Assembly: GCA_900548695.1 (NCBI GenBank)
Contig: URLC01000001.1
Location: 271,354 to 335,353 of the forward strand
Origin: an uncultured Mycoplasmatota bacterium
GTDB taxonomy: Bacteria > Bacillota_I > Bacilli_A > RF39 > UBA660
Direction: 5' to 3'
Length of the DNA: 64,000 nt
The notes below the pieces were generated by a model that was not told the DNA's origin, did not search any database, and saw only the letters and a list, made by a program, of their open reading frames with translations. Position numbers and translations under genes: made by a program. Below, one piece after another: positions 16,434 to 56,432 of the stretch. Position 1 is the first letter of the stretch; each line of letters begins with the position of its first letter.

Positions 16434-16645
16434 ATATTGAAATATTGCTAGTAGTAGTAGTGTAGTTTCTTATTTCTAGAGAGTTTATGGTTGGTGAAAG
16501 TAAACAATAAGTGCTATATGAACTTGATTGGCTGATAGTATTTAGGGTTAGACCTTTATCTCAATAAAGCTGCGTAGTAGAACTACGAAGTAAGGTGGTA
16601 CCGCGAAGATTCGTCCTTATAGTTGTATAGGGGCGTTTTTTTTAT
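16434..16645 (+). promoter_or_regulatory. T-box riboswitch leader, leucine-specific (candidate specifier CUU at 16523-16525), ending in an intrinsic terminator
   Basis: AGAGAG stem-I element; GAACUUGA specifier context; conserved T-box AAGGTGGTACCGCG at 16593-16606; terminator hairpin TCGTCCTTATAGTTGTATAGGGGCG plus a T-tract. Confidence 0.85.
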
Positions 16646-16656
16646 AGGAGGATTTT

Positions 16657-17013
16657 ATGTTTCAGGAGTTTATTTTATTTACTATGTGTTTTTTTGTAGT
16701 GTTAGTGGTATATGAAATTTTTATTGTTAGGAAAACTAAAAAGGATAAGAACAAAAAAAAACCTATGGAAGTTAGATACTTAATTACTAGGTATCATTTA
16801 AATATGCAAAAAGTGGATTATCCACAATTGTTACAAATTGTTGCTTTAGTATCATCGTTTGATATTGCACTTATAGTTTCTTTAGCGATGATTGTTGATT
16901 CCTATTTATGGCAACTTCTTTTGGTTTTAATACTAGTTTTACCTGTTATTGTTGTTAGTTATCATTTTGTTGGGATATTTTATAGAAAGAGAGGAATGAC
17001 GAAGAATGTATAA
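16657..17013 (+). CDS. small polytopic membrane protein (118 aa), hypothetical; translationally coupled to leuS
   Basis: Strong RBS AGGAGG 7 nt upstream; 3 TM segments; stop overlaps the leuS start (ATGTATAA). Confidence 0.45.
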
Positions 17014-19819
17014 TTTTAGTAAAATAGAGGAAAAATGGAGAAAATATTGGGAAGATAATGATACTTTTCATACTGATGTTTGGGATTTTAGTAAGCCTAA
17101 GTTTTATGCTTTAGATATGTTTCCTTATCCTTCTGGAGTAGGACTACATGCAGGACATGCTGAAGGGTATACTGCTACTGATATTATTTCTCGAATGAAG
17201 AGAATGCAAGGATATAATGTATTGCATCCGATGGGCTATGATTCTTTTGGGTTACCAGCAGAACAGTATGCTGTAACTACTGGTAATCATCCTAATGGAT
17301 TTACACAAAAAAATATTGAAACTTTTAGTAATCAGTTAAAAGCTATTGGTTTTGATTATGATTGGTCTAAAACTTTACAAACAAGTGATCCTAAATTTTA
17401 TAAATGGACACAATGGATTTTTAAACAATTATATAATGATGGTTATGCTAAATATATTGATATGCCAGTTAACTGGTGTGAAGAACTTGGGACTGTATTA
17501 TCTAATGATGAAGTAATTGATGGTAAAAGTGAACGTGGTGGATTTCCTGTTGTTAGAAAGAATATGAAACAATGGGTTATTGATCAAGCTGCTTTTGCTG
17601 AAAAATTACTTGCTGGGCTTGATGAACTTGACTGGCCTGAGTCTACTAAGGAAATGCAAAGAAATTGGATTGGCAAATCCATTGGAGCGCAGGTTATTTT
17701 TAAAGTGGCTGGTACTTCAGAAGAATTTAAAGTTTTTACTACTCGTTGTGATACTTTATTTGGAGCTACTTATTGTGTTATGGCCCCAGAACATGAGCTT
17801 GTTGATAAAATTACAACAGCTTCACAGAAAGAAGCAGTAGATTCTTATAAGAGAGTATGTGCTACTAAAAGTGATTTAGAAAGAACAGAACTTAATAAAG
17901 AAAAAACGGGTGTTTTTACTGGTTGTTATGCGGTTAATCCAGTTAATAATAAAGAAATTCCAATCTATATTTCGGATTACGTTTTAGCAAGTTATGGTAC
18001 TGGTGCTATTATGGCGGTTCCAGCACATGATGATCGTGATTTTGAATTTGCAACTAAGTTTAATATTCCAATTATTCAAGTGTTAGAAGAAGTTACTGGT
18101 AAAAAACATGATGATGAGTCTAAAAAAGAGTCTATTGTGGCTATTGTATATGATAAAGAAGAAGATAAGTACTTAACCGTTAATTGGAAAGAAAATGGTG
18201 GTCGTCTATTTATTGGTGGAACTAGAAAAGAAAATGAGTCTGCGGTAGATTGTGCTATTCGTGAGGTTTTAGAAGAAACTGGGTATACTGATATCGAACT
18301 TGTATGTGAGGATTTTAAAATTAATCATCATTATTATGCTTATAATAAAGATAAATACTTTAATATTGAGGCTACTCCATTATTGTTTGCACTTAAGAGT
18401 AAGAAACAAGATTCTCAAAATTTAGAGGAAGATGAAAGTTTTACTGTTGAATGGGTAGATAAGTCTACTATTTTAAAAGAAATCAAGGATGAATTACATT
18501 TGAAATCGTTTGAATATGTTTTAAATCCACGTGCGATGTCAGGTGATGGTATTCATATTAATTCAGATTTTTTAAATGGTTTAAATAAAGAAGATGCTAT
18601 TGACAAAATGATAGATTGGCTTACTGAGCATAATTGTGGTTCTAAGCAAGTGAATTATCGCATGAGAGAGTGGATTTTTGCTAGACAAAGATATTGGGGA
18701 GAACCAATGCCAGTTGTTTATTTAGAAAATGGGGATATTCATATTTTAGATGATGATGAGTTACCACTTATTTTACCTGAGCTTGATGATTATAAAGGTC
18801 ATGGTGGTAAGGCTCCACTTGAAAATGCCAGTGATTGGAAACAATATAGTCATAATGGTTTGAAAGGGGTTCGAGAAACTTCTACTATGCCTGGTTCGGC
18901 TGGCTCATCTTGGTATTATTTAAGATATATTGATCCAGAAAATAATGACTTTTTTGCTAATCAAGAGCTATTGAAACACTGGATGCCAGTTGATTTATAT
19001 ATTGGAGGACCAGAGCATGTTGTTGGTCATTTGATGTATTCTAGAATTTGGAATAATTATTTATATGATAAGGGATTATCTCCTGTTAAAGAACCATTTA
19101 AAAAACTAGTTCATCAGGGAATGATTTTAGGGGCTAATGGTATTAAGATGGGTAAACGTTATCCTGAGTTTGCAATTGATCCACTTGATATTGTTCGTGA
19201 TTATGGAGCTGATACTTTAAGGCTTTATGAAATGTTTATGGGTCCACTTGAAGCTTCTAAACCTTGGAGTCAACAAGGAGTTGAAGGTGCTCAAAAATTT
19301 TTGGATAGAATTTATCGTTTATATGAATCAGAAAAACTTCAAGATACAGAAAATAAAAATCTTGAAAAGATTTATCATCAAACTGTTAAAAAGGTAACTG
19401 ATGATTTTGAAACACTTAATTTTAATACTGCAATTAGTCAAATGATGATATTTATCAATGCAGTTTATAAAGAAGAAATATTTCCTAAAGAATATGCTGA
19501 AGGATTTGTTAAATTGTTAAATCCTGTTGCTCCTCATATTTCTGAAGAGATTTGGGAAATGTTAGGTCATCATGGTACTATGGCTTATGAAGCTTGGCCT
19601 ACTTATGACGCATCTAAATTGGTTGAAAATACTAAAGAGATAGCAGTTCAGGTAAATGGTAAGGTTCGGGCTACTATAACTATCTCTGTTGATGAAGATG
19701 AGGAAATTATTAAAGAGAAAGCATTGGATGCTGAGAATGTTAAGCGTCATACGGATGGCAAAGAGATTATAAAAGTAATCGTTATAAAAGGTAAAATTGT
19801 TAATATCGTGGTTAAATAA
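17006..19819 (+). CDS. leuS: leucine--tRNA ligase carrying an in-frame Nudix hydrolase domain insertion (937 aa)
   Basis: HAGHAEGY (HIGH); CP1 editing motifs TTRCDTLFG and [15 protein letters not shown]; KMGKR in place of KMSKS; anticodon-binding and C-terminal domains present. Nudix box [24 protein letters not shown] at 18215-18286. Confidence 0.93.
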
Positions 19820-29268: not shown

Positions 29269-29559
29269 ATGGATGTACTAAATGCTATTTTACCGGTATT
29301 ATTATATATCTTCGGGATTATATTATTAATAGTATTAATTATTTTAGGAATAAGGATGATTCAAATCTTAGATAAGGTTGACCGTGTTGTCGATAATGTT
29401 GAGGAAAAAGTTAATTCTTTTAATGGTTTTTTCGAGGTATTAGATAAAACTGGATATGGCATATCTGTCATTGGAGATAAGGTGATTAATTTATTTTCTT
29501 CAGTGATTGCTAAAATATTTAATAGAAATAAAAAGGATGAGGAGGATATATATGAGTAA
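29269..29559 (+). CDS. DUF948 (YtxG-like) small membrane protein
   Basis: N-terminal TM plus a coiled-coil tail; precedes a ytxH-like gene as in B. subtilis ytxG-ytxH; stop overlaps the next start (ATGAGTAA). Confidence 0.5.
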   Translation: MDVLNAILPVLLYIFGIILLIVLIILGIRMIQILDKVDRVVDNVEEKVNSFNGFFEVLDKTGYGISVIGDKVINLFSSVIAKIFNRNKKDEEDIYE

Positions 29560-29968
29560 AGAAAAAAAATCTGGATTAGGTAAGTTTGTTGCTGGAGCAG
29601 CAATTGGAGCAGGACTTGGAATTTTATTTGCTCCTAGAAAAGGTAGTGAAACTAGAGCGGCTTTAAAAGAGAAAATGACTGAGTTGGTTAATCAAATTAA
29701 AAATATTGATATGGAAGAAGTAAAAGAAGAGTTTAATCATAAACTAGCAGAGATTAAAGCTGATCTTGCTGATTTGGATAAAGAAAAAGTGTTGGAAATT
29801 GCTAAAGAAAAAACTGAGCAATTAAAAATGAAAGCTCAAGAATTAGTTGATTTAGCGGTTGATAAAGGTACTCCAGTATTAAGAGATGCTGCTGAAGAAG
29901 TTCGCTTGAAGGCAATTGAAGTTACTAAAGAAGTATTAAAGAAATTAGAAAAAGAAGGGAAGAAATAA
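29552..29968 (+). CDS. YtxH-like (general stress) protein
   Basis: MSKEKKSGLGKFVAGAAIGAGLGILFAPRKGSETR N-terminus typical of YtxH; GGAGG RBS. Confidence 0.6.
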   Translation: MSKEKKSGLGKFVAGAAIGAGLGILFAPRKGSETRAALKEKMTELVNQIKNIDMEEVKEEFNHKLAEIKADLADLDKEKVLEIAKEKTEQLKMKAQELVDLAVDKGTPVLRDAAEEVRLKAIEVTKEVLKKLEKEGKK

Positions 29969-30044
29969 TTCTTTTCTTTTTTTTGGTACTTTTCAAAGAT
30001 TAAAATATATGATATATTAGATACATAATTTTTTATTGATAAGT

Positions 30045-30235
30045 GGATTAGTAATGATTATTTTTTATTTATAGAGATTTAGTGGTTGGTGAAAACTAAA
30101 ATGAGAATAGTTATGAAATACGACATTTGGAGAAAAATCGTTTATCGCGTTAAGATATTTGAGAGTATAGAGAAATCTATAAATTAAGGTGGTACCGCGA
30201 ACTATTCGTCCTTATTTGGGAGAATAGTTTTTTTG
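30045..30235 (+). promoter_or_regulatory. T-box riboswitch leader, tyrosine-specific (specifier UAC at 30119-30121), with an intrinsic terminator
   Basis: GAAAUACGA specifier context; conserved AAGGTGGTACCGCG at 30186-30199; terminator CTATTCGTCCTTATTTGGGAGAATAG plus T7. Confidence 0.85.
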
Positions 30236-30249
30236 TTGGAGGTGTTTAT

Positions 30250-30795
30250 ATGAATACTGAGTATGAAGTTAGAGTGTTAGGAATTGATGCTTCGAAAATT
30301 GAAAAGCAGTTGGAAGCTTTGGGAGCCGTCTTGCAATGGGATCATTTGCAAAAAAGATATGTTTATGATTTTATACCAAAAATAGAGGGTAAATGGATTA
30401 GATTACGAACTAATGGTGAGAAGACAACATTAACTATTAAAAATATTGTTTCTTCGGAGATAGATGGAACACAAGAATTAGAAATTGCAGTGGATGATTT
30501 TTTCAAGACTAATTTATTGCTTAATGAACTTGGTTTTGAAGCGAAAGGTTATCAAGAGAATAGGAGACGCCAATATATGTTGGATGGTGTTGAAATAGAT
30601 ATTGATTCTTGGCCTTTGATTCCTACTTATTTGGAAATTGAGGGTAAAAGCGAAGAGGCAGTATATCAAGTGTTAGATAAATTAAAAATTTCAAAAGATT
30701 CTGTTACTACTAGAGATGTAGAGGGAATTTATTTGGATTATGGTTATCAATTAGATAAAATATATAATTTAAGATTAGAGGAGGAAAGAAAATGA
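30250..30795 (+). CDS. CYTH-domain (triphosphate tunnel metalloenzyme / CyaB-like) protein
   Basis: N-terminal EYEVR (ExExK-type) motif, IRLRTNGEK, ELEIAV and YLEIEGKSEE motifs; 181 aa; stop overlaps the tyrS start (ATGA). Confidence 0.65.
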   Translation: MNTEYEVRVLGIDASKIEKQLEALGAVLQWDHLQKRYVYDFIPKIEGKWIRLRTNGEKTTLTIKNIVSSEIDGTQELEIAVDDFFKTNLLLNELGFEAKGYQENRRRQYMLDGVEIDIDSWPLIPTYLEIEGKSEEAVYQVLDKLKISKDSVTTRDVEGIYLDYGYQLDKIYNLRLEEERK

Positions 30796-32024
30796 CATTT
30801 TTTGAAGAGTTAAAGTGGAGAGGTTTAGTTAAAGATATTTCAAGTCCTGAACTTGAGAATAAATTAAATCAGGGAGGGTTAAAATTTTATATAGGTGCTG
30901 ATCCAACTGCTGAAAGTTTACATATTGGACAATTTCCTACCTTTTTAATGGTAGAGCGCTTGAAGAGAGCTGGACATCATCCATATATCTTAGTTGGTGG
31001 AGCAACTGGTAGAGTTGGTGATCCTCGTGGAACTGGGGAGCGAGAGAAAGCAGAAATTTCTGTAATTGAACATAATTATGGAAAAATGAAAGCTCAAATA
31101 AAAAAGTTGTTTGGAGAAGAAGTACAATTAGTTAACAACTATGATTGGTTTAAAGATATTAATTATATCGATTTTTTAAGAGATGTTGGAAAGTATATCA
31201 ATGTCAGTTATATGATTAATAAAGATTTAGTTAAACGTCAAATGGATATTGGTATTAGTTATGCAGAGTTTTCATATATGTTAATTCAAGGATATGATTT
31301 TAAAAAACTTCATGATAATTATGGAATTACTTTACAATTTGGCGGTTCTGATCAATGGGGTAATTTAACTACAGGCATTGAATTAATTAGAAAGCTTAAT
31401 AGTGAAGAAGTTTTTGCTTTCTCTATGCCACTAATTACTGATTCTACGGGTAAAAAACTAGGTAAAAGCTATGGTAATGCATTATGGCTAGACCCTGAGA
31501 AAACATCTAGTTATGAAATGTATCAGTATCTATTAAATTTAGAAGATATCATGATGGAAGAGTATTTAAAGAAGTTCACATTTTTGACTAAGGAAGAAAT
31601 AGCAGACATTATGAAGCAACAAAGTGCACAACCAGAAAAAAGAGTTGCTCAAAAAGCTTTGGCTAAAGAAGTGTTAGATTTTATTCATGGTGAAGGTGCT
31701 TATGAAAATGCTGTTAAAATAAGTGAAGCTTTGTTTAGTGGAAATATTAAAGATTTGACTGCCTCTCAAATTGAGGATGCATTTAAAGGAATTGAACCAT
31801 TTACAATTAAAGAAGAAGAAAATCTGGTTGACTTCTTAGTACATTTTCAAATTTGTTCTAGTAAGAGAGAGGCTAGAGAATTTATTGGTAATAATTCTAT
31901 TACATTAAATGGAGAAAAAATAACAGATTGTGCATTTTTAGTTACTAAAGATGTTGCTATAGAACAGAAATATGTAGTTGTTAGACGTGGAAAGAAAAAG
32001 TATTTTATTGGAACGTTTTGCTAG
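30792..32024 (+). CDS. tyrS: tyrosine--tRNA ligase
   Basis: HIGQ in the HIGH position, KKLGKS (KMSKS), C-terminal S4 domain; preceded by a tyrosine-specific T-box. Confidence 0.9.
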   Translation: MTFFEELKWRGLVKDISSPELENKLNQGGLKFYIGADPTAESLHIGQFPTFLMVERLKRAGHHPYILVGGATGRVGDPRGTGEREKAEISVIEHNYGKMKAQIKKLFGEEVQLVNNYDWFKDINYIDFLRDVGKYINVSYMINKDLVKRQMDIGISYAEFSYMLIQGYDFKKLHDNYGITLQFGGSDQWGNLTTGIELIRKLNSEEVFAFSMPLITDSTGKKLGKSYGNALWLDPEKTSSYEMYQYLLNLEDIMMEEYLKKFTFLTKEEIADIMKQQSAQPEKRVAQKALAKEVLDFIHGEGAYENAVKISEALFSGNIKDLTASQIEDAFKGIEPFTIKEEENLVDFLVHFQICSSKREAREFIGNNSITLNGEKITDCAFLVTKDVAIEQKYVVVRRGKKKYFIGTFC

Positions 32025-32122
32025 ACTGTAAAATCTATCTTTTATGATAGATTTTTTTTTGTTATACTTCTAATATTTTTGTTTTTTTGTTACAATGTAT
32101 GTGGATTTGGAGATGATGTGTT

Positions 32123-33277
32123 ATGCAACGTAAAATTATAAAGATTTTATTTATTTTTCTATCTATTCTTATTTTGATAGTTAGTTTTTTGCTATTTTTT
32201 TATAAAGAAGAAGAACCTACTTATTTTGATAGTATTAATGCAATTGATGTTTCTGTTTCTTCAGATATTTTTGCAGTAGGTATTAATAATGCTAATGAGA
32301 GAGAAATATCTAAGGCTAAAGTAGCTAGATATGATTCTAAACAAGAAAAGATATGGGAAAAAGTTTATAATAAAGGTTATCGTAGTAAGTTTAATGATAT
32401 TATTTGTGATGGTGATGAAATTGTTTTTGTAGGTAGTTATGAAGCTACTAAAAATGATTATAAGAATAGGATTGAAACAGCTATTATATTAAAATATGAT
32501 TTAGATGGTGATTTAATTTTTGAAAAAGAATTTAATGGTTACGATAATACAAAGTTTTCGTCTATATTTGCAACAGATGATGGTTATGTAGTAATTGGTA
32601 CTGGAGAACAAGATGACAAGAGGATAGGCGTTTTAGTTAAATATCATACTGATGGTACTCTAGATTGGAAGAAGAAATTTAGTGAGGGAGATAATATTAA
32701 ATTTAATGATGTGATTATGACTTCTGATTTTATTTATGTAGTTGGAAGTAAAAATGCTAATCAGGGTTTGATTGCTAAATATGATATGGAGGGAAATCTT
32801 TTAGATACTGTGATTTATGATGGTATTTCTTCCTATGGCTTTTCTAGTGTTACGTTTATTGATTCCAGTCTAGTTGTTACTACTGGTAAGCAAGTAGATG
32901 ATAGTAAAACGGATGCTATGTTAGTTCGTTATGATTTGGATTTGAATTATTTGAATGAAGCAACTCATAAGCTTAAAGATTCTAGCTTTTTTAGAAAAGT
33001 TATTGTAGATTCTAATCAAGATTTATTAGTGTTAGGAACAGCCAGAGAGATTAAAAAAGATAAGGTTATTCATCATTCTTTCATTGGAAAGTATCGAAGT
33101 AATTTGGAAAAAGCTCAGGTAGTTAATTATTATAATGAAACAGATGATTATCTTACGGATATTGAAATTTTTGATGATAACTATTTAGTATCTGGTTATT
33201 CATTTTATTCTGATCAAGGTTATTTAAGTAAATTCCTTTTATATAGTCAAGCATTAAAGTTATTGGAGGTAAAATAA
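32123..33277 (+). CDS. membrane-anchored protein with beta-propeller-like repeats, hypothetical
   Basis: N-terminal TM; repeated ~45-aa units (YVVIGTGEQDD / IYVVGSKNANQG / LVVTTGKQVDD / LLVLGTAREIKKD). Confidence 0.4.
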   Translation: MQRKIIKILFIFLSILILIVSFLLFFYKEEEPTYFDSINAIDVSVSSDIFAVGINNANEREISKAKVARYDSKQEKIWEKVYNKGYRSKFNDIICDGDEIVFVGSYEATKNDYKNRIETAIILKYDLDGDLIFEKEFNGYDNTKFSSIFATDDGYVVIGTGEQDDKRIGVLVKYHTDGTLDWKKKFSEGDNIKFNDVIMTSDFIYVVGSKNANQGLIAKYDMEGNLLDTVIYDGISSYGFSSVTFIDSSLVVTTGKQVDDSKTDAMLVRYDLDLNYLNEATHKLKDSSFFRKVIVDSNQDLLVLGTAREIKKDKVIHHSFIGKYRSNLEKAQVVNYYNETDDYLTDIEIFDDNYLVSGYSFYSDQGYLSKFLLYSQALKLLEVK

Positions 33278-55735: not shown

Positions 55736-56077
55736 ATGTATCAGAATAAGATTACACTTATGCCACAAGATATTTTGGAGAAAGAATTTAAAATTGATAC
55801 TCGTGGATACCGTTTAAAAGAAGTAGACCAGTTTCTTGATATTATTATTGGTGATTATGAACAGTTTTTAAATATTATCAATAATTTAGAGAAAGAAAAA
55901 GCTGACTTGTTGGGTGAAATTATGAATTTGAAGCAAGAACTTCGCAATTCTAAAATGAGTATGGAAGTTGCTCGCAATAATGTTGAAGTTCCAGAAGTTA
56001 CAAATTTAGATATTTTAAGACGTCTTTCTCAACTTGAGAAGATGGTGTACAGTAGTAACAAGGATAATAACAATTAA
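55736..56077 (+). CDS. gpsB: cell-cycle protein GpsB (DivIVA-domain)
   Basis: MPQDILEKEFKIDTRGYRLKEVDQFLDIIIGDYE DivIVA N-domain; 113 aa; rnpB follows directly as in Bacillus. Confidence 0.8.
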   Translation: MYQNKITLMPQDILEKEFKIDTRGYRLKEVDQFLDIIIGDYEQFLNIINNLEKEKADLLGEIMNLKQELRNSKMSMEVARNNVEVPEVTNLDILRRLSQLEKMVYSSNKDNNN

Positions 56078-56079
56078 TA

Positions 56080-56432
56080 TATAGACAAACGCTGATATTT
56101 TTAAGATATTAGAGGAAAGTCCATGCTCGCACAGTCTGTGATGATTGTAGTGTTCGTGCCTAGGGAAAAAATAACCTAGGGTAGCATATGCTAACGGCGG
56201 AAGATAATCTAAGTCTTTGATATGATTTATTCCATAATGTGCCGCAGAGACGAGGCTTTAGGAAACTAAAGAGTGAAACGTGGTAAACCCCGCGAGCGAG
56301 AAACCCAAATTTGGTAGGGGAGCTCTAATGAAAGAATCGAATGGAGTTAGGGACCAAGTAATTGGTAGATAAATGTTTGTCGCCTGGCAACAGGAACGGA
56401 ACATGGCTTATTTATATTATTTGTTTATTATA
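56080..56432 (+). ncRNA. rnpB: RNase P RNA, type B (Bacillus-type)
   Basis: AGAGGAAAGTCCATGCTCGCACAG, GTAGTGTTCGTGCCTAG, GTGAAACGTGGTAAACCCCGCGAGCGAGAAACCCAAATTTGGTAGGGGA and ACATGGCTTA match conserved B. subtilis RNase P RNA blocks. P1 pairing is between 56081-56089 and 56422-56430. Confidence 0.85.

Follow-up and report, generated by a model that had tools for sequence, protein, structure and literature searches.

Why does a tyrosine-specific T-box leader stand in front of a gene for a CYTH-domain protein, with tyrS, the gene of the tyrosyl-tRNA synthetase (TyrRS), only in second place? The locus that raises this question lies on the forward (+) strand of a stretch of 64,000 nucleotides (nt) from an uncultured Mycoplasmatota bacterium (GenBank assembly GCA_900548695.1, contig URLC01000001.1, positions 271,354 to 335,353). 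We call this whole stretch the window and give all its coordinates as window positions. An earlier note on this DNA had described a T-box leader, a CYTH gene of 181 amino acids (aa) and the overlap of its stop codon with the tyrS start codon. It had taken the placement to imply a functional link, with hydrolysis of inorganic triphosphate (PPPi) or of by-products of the diadenosine tetraphosphate (Ap4A) type, or nucleotide signalling, as possible roles. Our analysis leads, with slightly better than even confidence, to the following answer: the locus is a T-box operon whose first gene encodes a CYTH hydrolase (not a cyclase) and is coupled to tyrS, the layout is derived, and the link between the two genes is regulatory rather than catalytic. 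The T-box–CYTH–tyrS layout itself is far beyond chance, because it recurs in 70 other species-level genomes with compensatory changes in the RNA helices. The operon comprises the following elements:

29990–30018, + strand: candidate sigma-70-type promoter (TTTTCA, 17-nt spacer, TATATT, TG before the -10 hexamer), from a consensus scan only.
30027–30216, + strand: T-box leader RNA with Stem I, linker helices, Stem III and antiterminator (Rfam RF00230).
30119–30121, + strand: specifier codon UAC (Tyr), followed by the purine G30122 (sequence, Stem I fold, relatives).
30185–30214, + strand: antiterminator with helix A1 (UAAGG/CCUUA), the 7-nt bulge UGGUACC and helix A2 (GCGAA/UUCGU), from the minimum free energy (MFE) fold.
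30186–30199, + strand: conserved T-box sequence AAGGUGGUACCGCG (sequence, Rfam, folding).
30199–30236, + strand: intrinsic terminator, stem 30199–30207/30222–30230, extended inside by 3 bp and followed by a U-run (MFE fold).
30238–30242, + strand: Shine–Dalgarno sequence GGAGG, spaced 7 nt from the CYTH start codon ATG (sequence; kept in relatives).
30250–30795, + strand: CYTH or triphosphate tunnel metalloenzyme (TTM) gene, 181 aa (Pfam PF01928).
30778–30795, + strand: coupling junction, with the tyrS Shine–Dalgarno sequence GAGGAGGA (30778–30785) and the ATGA stop/start overlap (30792–30795) (sequence).
30792–32024, + strand: tyrS, tyrosyl-tRNA synthetase, 410 aa, a variant type with the signature motifs HIGQFP and KLGKS (TIGR00234).
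32030–32061, + strand: intrinsic terminator closing the bicistronic operon, hairpin 32030–32055, then a run of 9 U (folding).

The leader (30027–30216) is matched by the Rfam T-box model RF00230 over the full model (positions 1–219) with 97.1 bits, above the gathering score of 93 bits, and an E-value of 4e-20. According to sequence and fold, the UAC specifier is part of GAAAUACG and occupies the 3' strand of the internal loop in Stem I, in the context GAA-A-UAC-G (30115–30122) and with tyrS downstream. Stem I also carries its distal motifs, AGAGA and GGUUGGUGAAA; the linker is short, and most Stem II positions are unmatched in the Rfam alignment. Within the T-box sequence, the bulge UGGUACC (30190–30196) includes the UGGU that is complementary to the tRNA 3' end ACCA. 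Folded alone (30183–30216), the antiterminator with its classical 7-nt bulge has an MFE of -5.1 kcal/mol. The terminator hairpin 30199–30230 (folded as 30196–30236) reaches -14.0 kcal/mol with a z-score of -4.1, none of 200 shuffled sequences folding as well, and its U-run extends to 30234. Since 16 nt (30199–30214) are used by both structures, antiterminator and terminator are mutually exclusive. Rfam, sequence and folding agree here with the earlier note on the coordinates of leader, specifier, T-box sequence and terminator, and the leader does fold into a specifier loop and an alternating antiterminator and terminator, with compensatory changes among relatives. The tyrS leader of Bacillus subtilis (Grundy and Henkin; RF00230) likewise has a UAC specifier followed by a purine in the Stem I internal loop, the motifs AGAGA and GGUUGGUGAAA, a 14-nt T-box sequence with a 7-nt bulge and a competing terminator, and it likewise regulates tyrS. 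The present locus differs from it in its short linker and in its first gene, which is CYTH, so that tyrS is reached only via the stop/start overlap. A consensus terminator scan of positions 29500–32400 returned no terminator; the scan demands at least three G–C pairs and both terminators of the operon are AT-rich, which is why it missed structures that are clear by direct folding. The candidate promoter is weakly indicated, as promoter-like consensus matches are no commoner here than in shuffled sequence; the leaders of relatives carry a TATAT- or TATAG-like element at its place.

In T-box regulation, uncharged cognate tRNA stabilises the antiterminator and thereby allows read-through. The switch would be a class-I-type, transcription-attenuating T-box riboswitch specific for tRNA-Tyr. 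The anticodon GUA of uncharged tRNA-Tyr would pair with the UAC specifier and its free 3' ACCA with the UGGU of the T-box bulge; this pairing would tip the balance from the stronger terminator (-14 kcal/mol) towards the weak antiterminator (-5 kcal/mol), and RNA polymerase would then read into CYTH and tyrS.

How is tyrS reached behind the CYTH gene? The product of tyrS is identified by TIGR00234 at 360 bits and by the Pfam tRNA-synt_1b and SYY C-terminal domains, and its Shine–Dalgarno sequence GAGGAGGA lies inside the last CYTH codons (..LEEERK), in the CYTH reading frame. Rfam and consensus scans between CYTH and tyrS gave no T-box, no terminator and no excess of promoter-like sites. Ribosomes that end CYTH are expected to reinitiate on tyrS, because tyrS is without its own leader, has its ribosome-binding site within the CYTH coding sequence and starts with an ATG that shares nucleotides with the CYTH stop codon. 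The 181-aa CYTH gene and the ATGA at 30792–30795, both described in the earlier note, are borne out by Pfam, TIGR00234 and the sequence. The terminator hairpin behind tyrS folds with -9.8 kcal/mol (z-score -4.4).

Is this layout kept in relatives? Metagenomes hold thousands of relatives of the CYTH protein, and 23 contigs carry its exact sequence amid the same gene surroundings. Scanning GTDB, with each species represented by one genome and the CYTH alignment as query, gave 80 loci, and in 70 of these 80 species genomes with this CYTH, tyrS follows directly; the pairing on whose conservation the earlier note had made its reading depend is therefore widespread among relatives. The 70 genomes are metagenome-assembled genomes (MAGs) labelled Bacilli, Mycoplasmatota, Tenericutes, Candidatus Faecimonas (Bacilli incertae sedis in NCBI) or 'Mycoplasma sp. 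CAG:877', and they stem from the guts of humans, ruminants, rabbits, mice and chickens. Overlaps of 4 nt (ATGA, 51 loci) or 1 nt (TAATG, 9 loci) make up 60 of the 68 measurable junctions, the others being seven gaps of 1–3 nt and one inserted gene. We detected a Tyr T-box upstream in 66 of the 70 loci, 62 of them with the 14-mer about 60 nt 5' of CYTH. At four loci (L030, L034, L037 and L040) the T-box, about 230 nt upstream of CYTH, scores 66–68 bits and falls below the Rfam gathering score because its Stem I distal loop is longer by an insertion of 28 nt and its T-box sequence has the variant ACCAUG. Two further loci (L062, 1–191; L073, 2760–3000) have a much shorter leader that keeps UAC, GGAUGGUACCGUG and the terminator. 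These two leaders are without the Stem I distal platform motifs, neither is recognised by Rfam even at an E-value of 0.01, and they may represent a reduced T-box variant.

The RNA elements are conserved in detail as well. UAC is invariant across 64 aligned orthologous leaders, and a regular-expression count found GAA(N0-2)UAC, with A or G as the next base, in nearly all of 71 leaders. The T-box 14-mer is identical in 49 of 71 relatives, with ACG or ATG variants in 20. RNAalifold, applied to the 64 leaders, recovers the distal Stem I helix, a linker helix, Stem III and the antiterminator, with compensatory changes in 14 of the 23 predicted pairs, and of the 69 leaders of relatives, 68 contain a terminator hairpin with U-run, whose median energy is -15.8 kcal/mol. 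In three separate species the operon holds an additional, unrelated gene: an M78/IrrE-like peptidase-domain gene (L055, 2492–2995) and a 335-aa gene of unassigned family (L075, 1997–3004) stand between T-box and CYTH, and a cupin-like gene (L056, 3540–3962) between CYTH and tyrS.

From where did the CYTH gene come into this position? A reverse scan of metagenome contigs with the TyrRS alignment gave 80 tyrS loci, and CYTH was found upstream of tyrS only at the closest of these (L090). At 14 outgroup loci, whose TyrRS is 44–57% identical, a T-box motif lies 59–136 nt directly upstream of tyrS and no CYTH gene occurs within 2.5 kb; this is the usual arrangement that the earlier note had assumed. 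Ten 'Clostridia' MAGs carry a CYTH protein of 60–63% identity after [FeFe]-hydrogenase genes, with neither tyrS nor a T-box nearby. These orthologues end in ..VLKF(N), without the LEEERK tail, which in the Bacilli clade is no more than the tyrS Shine–Dalgarno sequence read as protein. CYTH relatives at 49–52% identity occur in varied contexts, including contigs labelled candidate phyla radiation (CPR) bacteria and DPANN archaea; examples are a position near the CCA-adding enzyme, one beside fur, peroxiredoxin and sod, and a row of isochorismatase, CYTH and NUDIX genes. Judged by these labels of the relatives at about 50% identity, the subfamily is frequent in small-genome organisms. A general linkage of the CYTH subfamily to tyrS or other synthetases was also considered and rejected, as none was seen at four of the 49–52% relatives and in the ten Clostridia MAGs. 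The CYTH–tyrS arrangement is derived and lineage-specific, because the 14 outgroup loci carry the canonical T-box–tyrS order and orthologues outside the lineage sit elsewhere. In an ancestor of one lineage of small-genome, uncultured gut Bacilli, a housekeeping CYTH gene would have been inserted behind the T-box terminator and in front of tyrS, where it would have been retained since in at least 70 species.

What kind of protein is placed under this switch? Pfam PF01928 matches it with 36.9 bits (gathering score 23.2, E-value 4e-9), and its motifs read E4xE6xR8, W49xR51xR53, TxK64, E76xE78, R106, D119 and E129xE131. The AlphaFold model, with a predicted local distance difference test score (pLDDT) of 84, has a predicted eight-stranded beta-barrel tunnel fold. 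Its best Foldseek matches are PH1012 (2DC4), Pfu-838710 (1YEM) and SaTTM (7NSF), with probability 1.0 and template modelling (TM) scores of 0.70–0.78. The Yersinia class IV adenylate cyclase (AC-IV) and thiamine triphosphatases (ThTPases) rank below this SaTTM group, the latter with TM scores of 0.55–0.62, and sequence and profile searches of the PDB gave the same ranking with the SaTTM group first. For the motifs we surveyed 97 sequences, namely 96 representatives of 50%-identity clusters and the window protein. E4, E6, R51, R53, K64, E76, D119, E129 and E131 are nearly invariant among them, and the tunnel residues for the triphosphate and two metals (R51, R53, K64, R106, E76, E78, D119, E129 and E131) are invariant or nearly so. 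W49 is kept in 83 of the 97, position 8 is K or R in a ratio of 48:40, and in the window clade the place of the hallmark ExExK is taken by E4-Y-E6-V-R8, with both Glu invariant and Arg for Lys.

Published determinants separate the activities within this superfamily: class IV cyclases have HFxxxxExExK, a small residue for the first Arg of xRxR and ExA on strand beta-8, while hydrolases keep ExE and W/YxRxR marks thiamine triphosphatases (Vogt et al. 2021, PMC8233210). The window protein is without the HF motif and has only M-N-T before E4; its open reading frame (ORF) is not extendable upstream because the terminator and the Shine–Dalgarno sequence lie directly 5'. It scores 38.4 bits against the NCBIfam cyaB equivalog TIGR00318, whose cut-off is 57.95. 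Because HF is absent, R51 and E129xE131 are kept, the fold is SaTTM-like and the cyaB score stays below the cut-off, we take the protein for a hydrolase and not for a cyclase. Motifs and model together speak most for a two-metal triphosphohydrolase that has an aromatic residue for stacking where the tunnel opens. It likely acts on PPPi, on an organic triphosphate with a ring that stacks on W49, or on both. SaTTM (Saci_0718, PDB 7NS8–7NSF), PH1012 and Pfu-838710, the latter two being CyaB-like proteins of archaea, are likewise single-domain, eight-stranded tunnel proteins of about 180 aa with xRxR, TxK, ExE and ExE, and SaTTM itself is a PPPi-preferring triphosphatase. The window protein differs from this group, to which it is 21–24% identical, by W49 at the place of A54 (SaTTM chain numbering offset by one, checked on E135/E137), by ExExR for ExExK and by K/R-R-Y for the water-positioning motif DxY, as well as by its bacterial host and its T-box control. 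Elsewhere in the subfamily, CYTH is fused to NUDIX, ASCH, DUF1835+DUF3658 and DUF1653 domains (P0128, P0129, P0134, P0186 and P0258), and the isochorismatase–CYTH–NUDIX row mentioned above lies on the P0349 contig. This company suggests nucleotide or RNA metabolism but is not specific.

What, then, connects the CYTH protein with TyrRS? Two TyrRS types are encoded downstream of CYTH. The first, found in the window and at 16 loci, has the signatures HIGQ[FYL]P and K[LI]GKS, which lie at 30918–30938 and about 31452–31466 in the window tyrS; the second has the canonical signatures H[LI]GH[YF]S and KFGK[ST]. The two types are 55–60% identical and are found swapped beside near-identical CYTH genes and flanks (L030 versus L034), which points to replacement of tyrS in situ by recombination. 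Because tyrS was apparently exchanged next to near-identical CYTH genes, CYTH does not seem to co-adapt with TyrRS. The two types also explain why CYTH, at 64–83% identity, had seemed more conserved than TyrRS at 55–60%: this comparison is an artefact and was discarded, as TyrRS is 83–85% identical within one type. CYTH is a real gene under purifying selection (dN/dS 0.10–0.16), weaker than that on TyrRS of the same type (0.04–0.065).

A second T-box in the window allows a comparison. It lies at 16441–16621 (+), matches Rfam with 101.5 bits and has the specifier CUU (Leu). Behind it follows an ORF of 118 aa (16657–17013) for a hydrophobic, membrane-like protein with no Pfam match, which overlaps the start of leuS by 8 nt. 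The Leu locus (16441–17013) shares with the tyrS locus the layout of T-box, extra gene and synthetase. Similar cases have been described in streptococci, where ORFs termed 'tRNA-ligase related hypothetical' likewise stand between a T-box and an aminoacyl-tRNA synthetase (aaRS) gene and are co-regulated with it; these ORFs, however, are not CYTH, they precede the Val, Ala, Gly and Thr synthetases, and no enzyme family or order-level conservation was described for them (Wels et al. 2008, PMC2494555, Table 2).

We favour a regulatory link because the subfamily is unlinked to tyrS elsewhere, tyrS has been swapped, passenger genes have been inserted and the Leu T-box operon holds an unrelated ORF. 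Most likely, CYTH is co-expressed with TyrRS, and a drop in tRNA-Tyr charging raises its level. That a T-box operon picked up the gene opportunistically fits the data at least as well as a catalytic partnership, and a specific catalytic or physical partnership of CYTH and TyrRS probably does not exist. On the same grounds, the functional link through PPPi or Ap4A by-products that the earlier note had drawn from the placement is somewhat disfavoured. Several observations weigh against our reading all the same. CYTH has been kept at the exact position in about 70 species despite tyrS replacement, which could equally reflect a need for catalytic co-expression, and the NUDIX domain in the leucyl-tRNA synthetase (LeuRS) of the same genome hints at a broader theme of synthetases and nucleotide hydrolases that a passenger gene does not explain. 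The species scan was seeded from CYTH, and its counts therefore cover CYTH carriers and say nothing on genomes of the lineage without CYTH. As to the hydrolase itself, its substrate or rate could differ from those of characterised TTMs, with ExExR for ExExK and K35-R36-Y37 where SaTTM has DxY, and the HMMER register of its N-terminus against SaTTM, shifted by two residues, is ambiguous.

Could CYTH serve the catalysis of TyrRS after all? Aminoacyl-tRNA synthetases make Ap4A and related compounds from the adenylate. CYTH might remove such a by-product or inhibitor of aminoacyl-adenylate chemistry (PPPi, adenosine tetraphosphate or compounds of the Ap4A/Ap3A type) and be made in fixed proportion to TyrRS, with the NUDIX part of LeuRS doing a related job. 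The tight stop/start overlap that accompanies the conserved position, the survival of this position through tyrS replacement, the intact NUDIX box within LeuRS and the CYTH–NUDIX fusions and gene pair of the wider subfamily would all agree with this. However, outside the lineage the subfamily adjoins no aaRS gene, and CYTH does not co-vary with the TyrRS type. Moreover, the T-box would induce the operon when charging is limited by tyrosine, that is, when adenylate by-products should be lowest, and characterised TTMs cleave the terminal phosphate of tri- and tetraphosphates, not dinucleoside polyphosphates (PMC8233210). We therefore regard a catalytic partnership as doubtful.

A wider form of the same idea starts from LeuRS. 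This protein of 937 aa (17006–19819, +) carries a NUDIX part at about 18134–18472, inserted right after the editing domain (Pfam PF00293, E-value 2.6e-9, aa 377–489), with an intact box (G405..E411..R419-E420..E423-E424.G426). A protein search with LeuRS-NUDIX gave 10 relatives, mostly fragments joining editing domain and NUDIX, and the two contigs that were checked are frameshift-ridden; judged by these matches, the insertion seems rare and lineage-restricted. We found no literature on it. The synthetases of this lineage could have nucleotide or polyphosphate hydrolases as deliberate partners, TyrRS a translationally coupled, ThTPase-like CYTH and LeuRS its built-in NUDIX domain, both under T-box control and destroying PPPi, adenosine tetraphosphate (p4A), dinucleoside polyphosphates (ApnA) or a signal like thiamine triphosphate (ThTP) in step with synthetase level and charging. 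Such a pairing, which we consider unlikely, would give CYTH proteins their first defined physiological role in bacteria.

The tryptophan at the tunnel mouth raises the further question of whether the enzyme hydrolyses a starvation signal, cleaving ThTP or a similar ring-bearing triphosphate alarm molecule, its level being tied to amino-acid limitation by the T-box. W49-I-R51-L-R53 agrees with the W/YxRxR determinant, with ExExK/R and ExE intact, and W49, which prevails in the subfamily, aligns with SaTTM A54, the position that has been equated with W53 of mouse ThTPase (Vogt et al., PMC8233210). ThTP accumulates in Escherichia coli under amino-acid starvation (PMC3545222). The animal 25-kDa thiamine triphosphatase (PDB 3BHD, 5A64) likewise has the CYTH fold, W/YxRxR and motifs of the ExExK type and ExE; it differs, though, in length and in the plug-helix region, and a profile search found no detectable sequence relationship, animal ThTPases not being retrieved from the PDB at an E-value of up to 1. 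Their fold similarity to the window protein also lies below that of the SaTTM group, an aromatic residue at position 49 could equally stack a nucleobase, and no thiamine genes lie nearby. We hold the hydrolysis of a ThTP-like signal to be very unlikely.

A class IV adenylate cyclase making cyclic AMP (cAMP) as a tyrosine-starvation signal, which was among the options of the earlier note, is hardly credible; its motifs and a score below the NCBIfam cut-off led to its rejection. In some databases relatives do carry the name 'adenylate cyclase class 2/IV', the protein shares superfamily, size and this frequent label with Aeromonas CyaB and Yersinia pestis AC-IV (TIGR00318), the latter is among the fold matches and there is a sub-threshold cyaB match, but all three AC-IV determinants fail (no HF, R51 instead of a small residue, ExE instead of ExA) and the nearest characterised homologue, SaTTM, is a triphosphatase that was likewise formerly mis-annotated as a cyclase (PMC8233210).

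Switch and enzyme superfamily are each familiar; their conserved arrangement in one operon had not been described before, and we found no paper that links CYTH to T-boxes or to TyrRS. What CYTH/TTM enzymes do physiologically 'has largely remained elusive' (PMC8233210). Here a CYTH subfamily is placed, lineage-wide and alongside an essential synthetase, under a switch of exactly known input, uncharged tRNA-Tyr, and functional work on CYTH can start from a concrete regulatory setting and from a protein that is small and soluble. For this subfamily, the name 'adenylate cyclase' used in databases is corrected. The space between a T-box terminator and a synthetase gene can, on our reading, capture and hold unrelated genes, which calls for caution when function is inferred from specifier codons. 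Should the link be only regulatory hitch-hiking, the locus is a tidy but ordinary operon variant; should the substrate of the enzyme turn out to be a by-product of a synthetase or a signal of starvation, the interest of the locus rises considerably.

In the remainder of the window, a search for tRNA genes across the whole 64 kb found none. Right after the tyrS terminator follows an ORF of 384 aa (32123–33277, +) without a Pfam match; its product has an N-terminal hydrophobic segment, and its position is kept in the identical contigs. A class B RNase P RNA at 56076–56415 (+; Rfam, 285.9 bits) is consistent with a Bacillota host.

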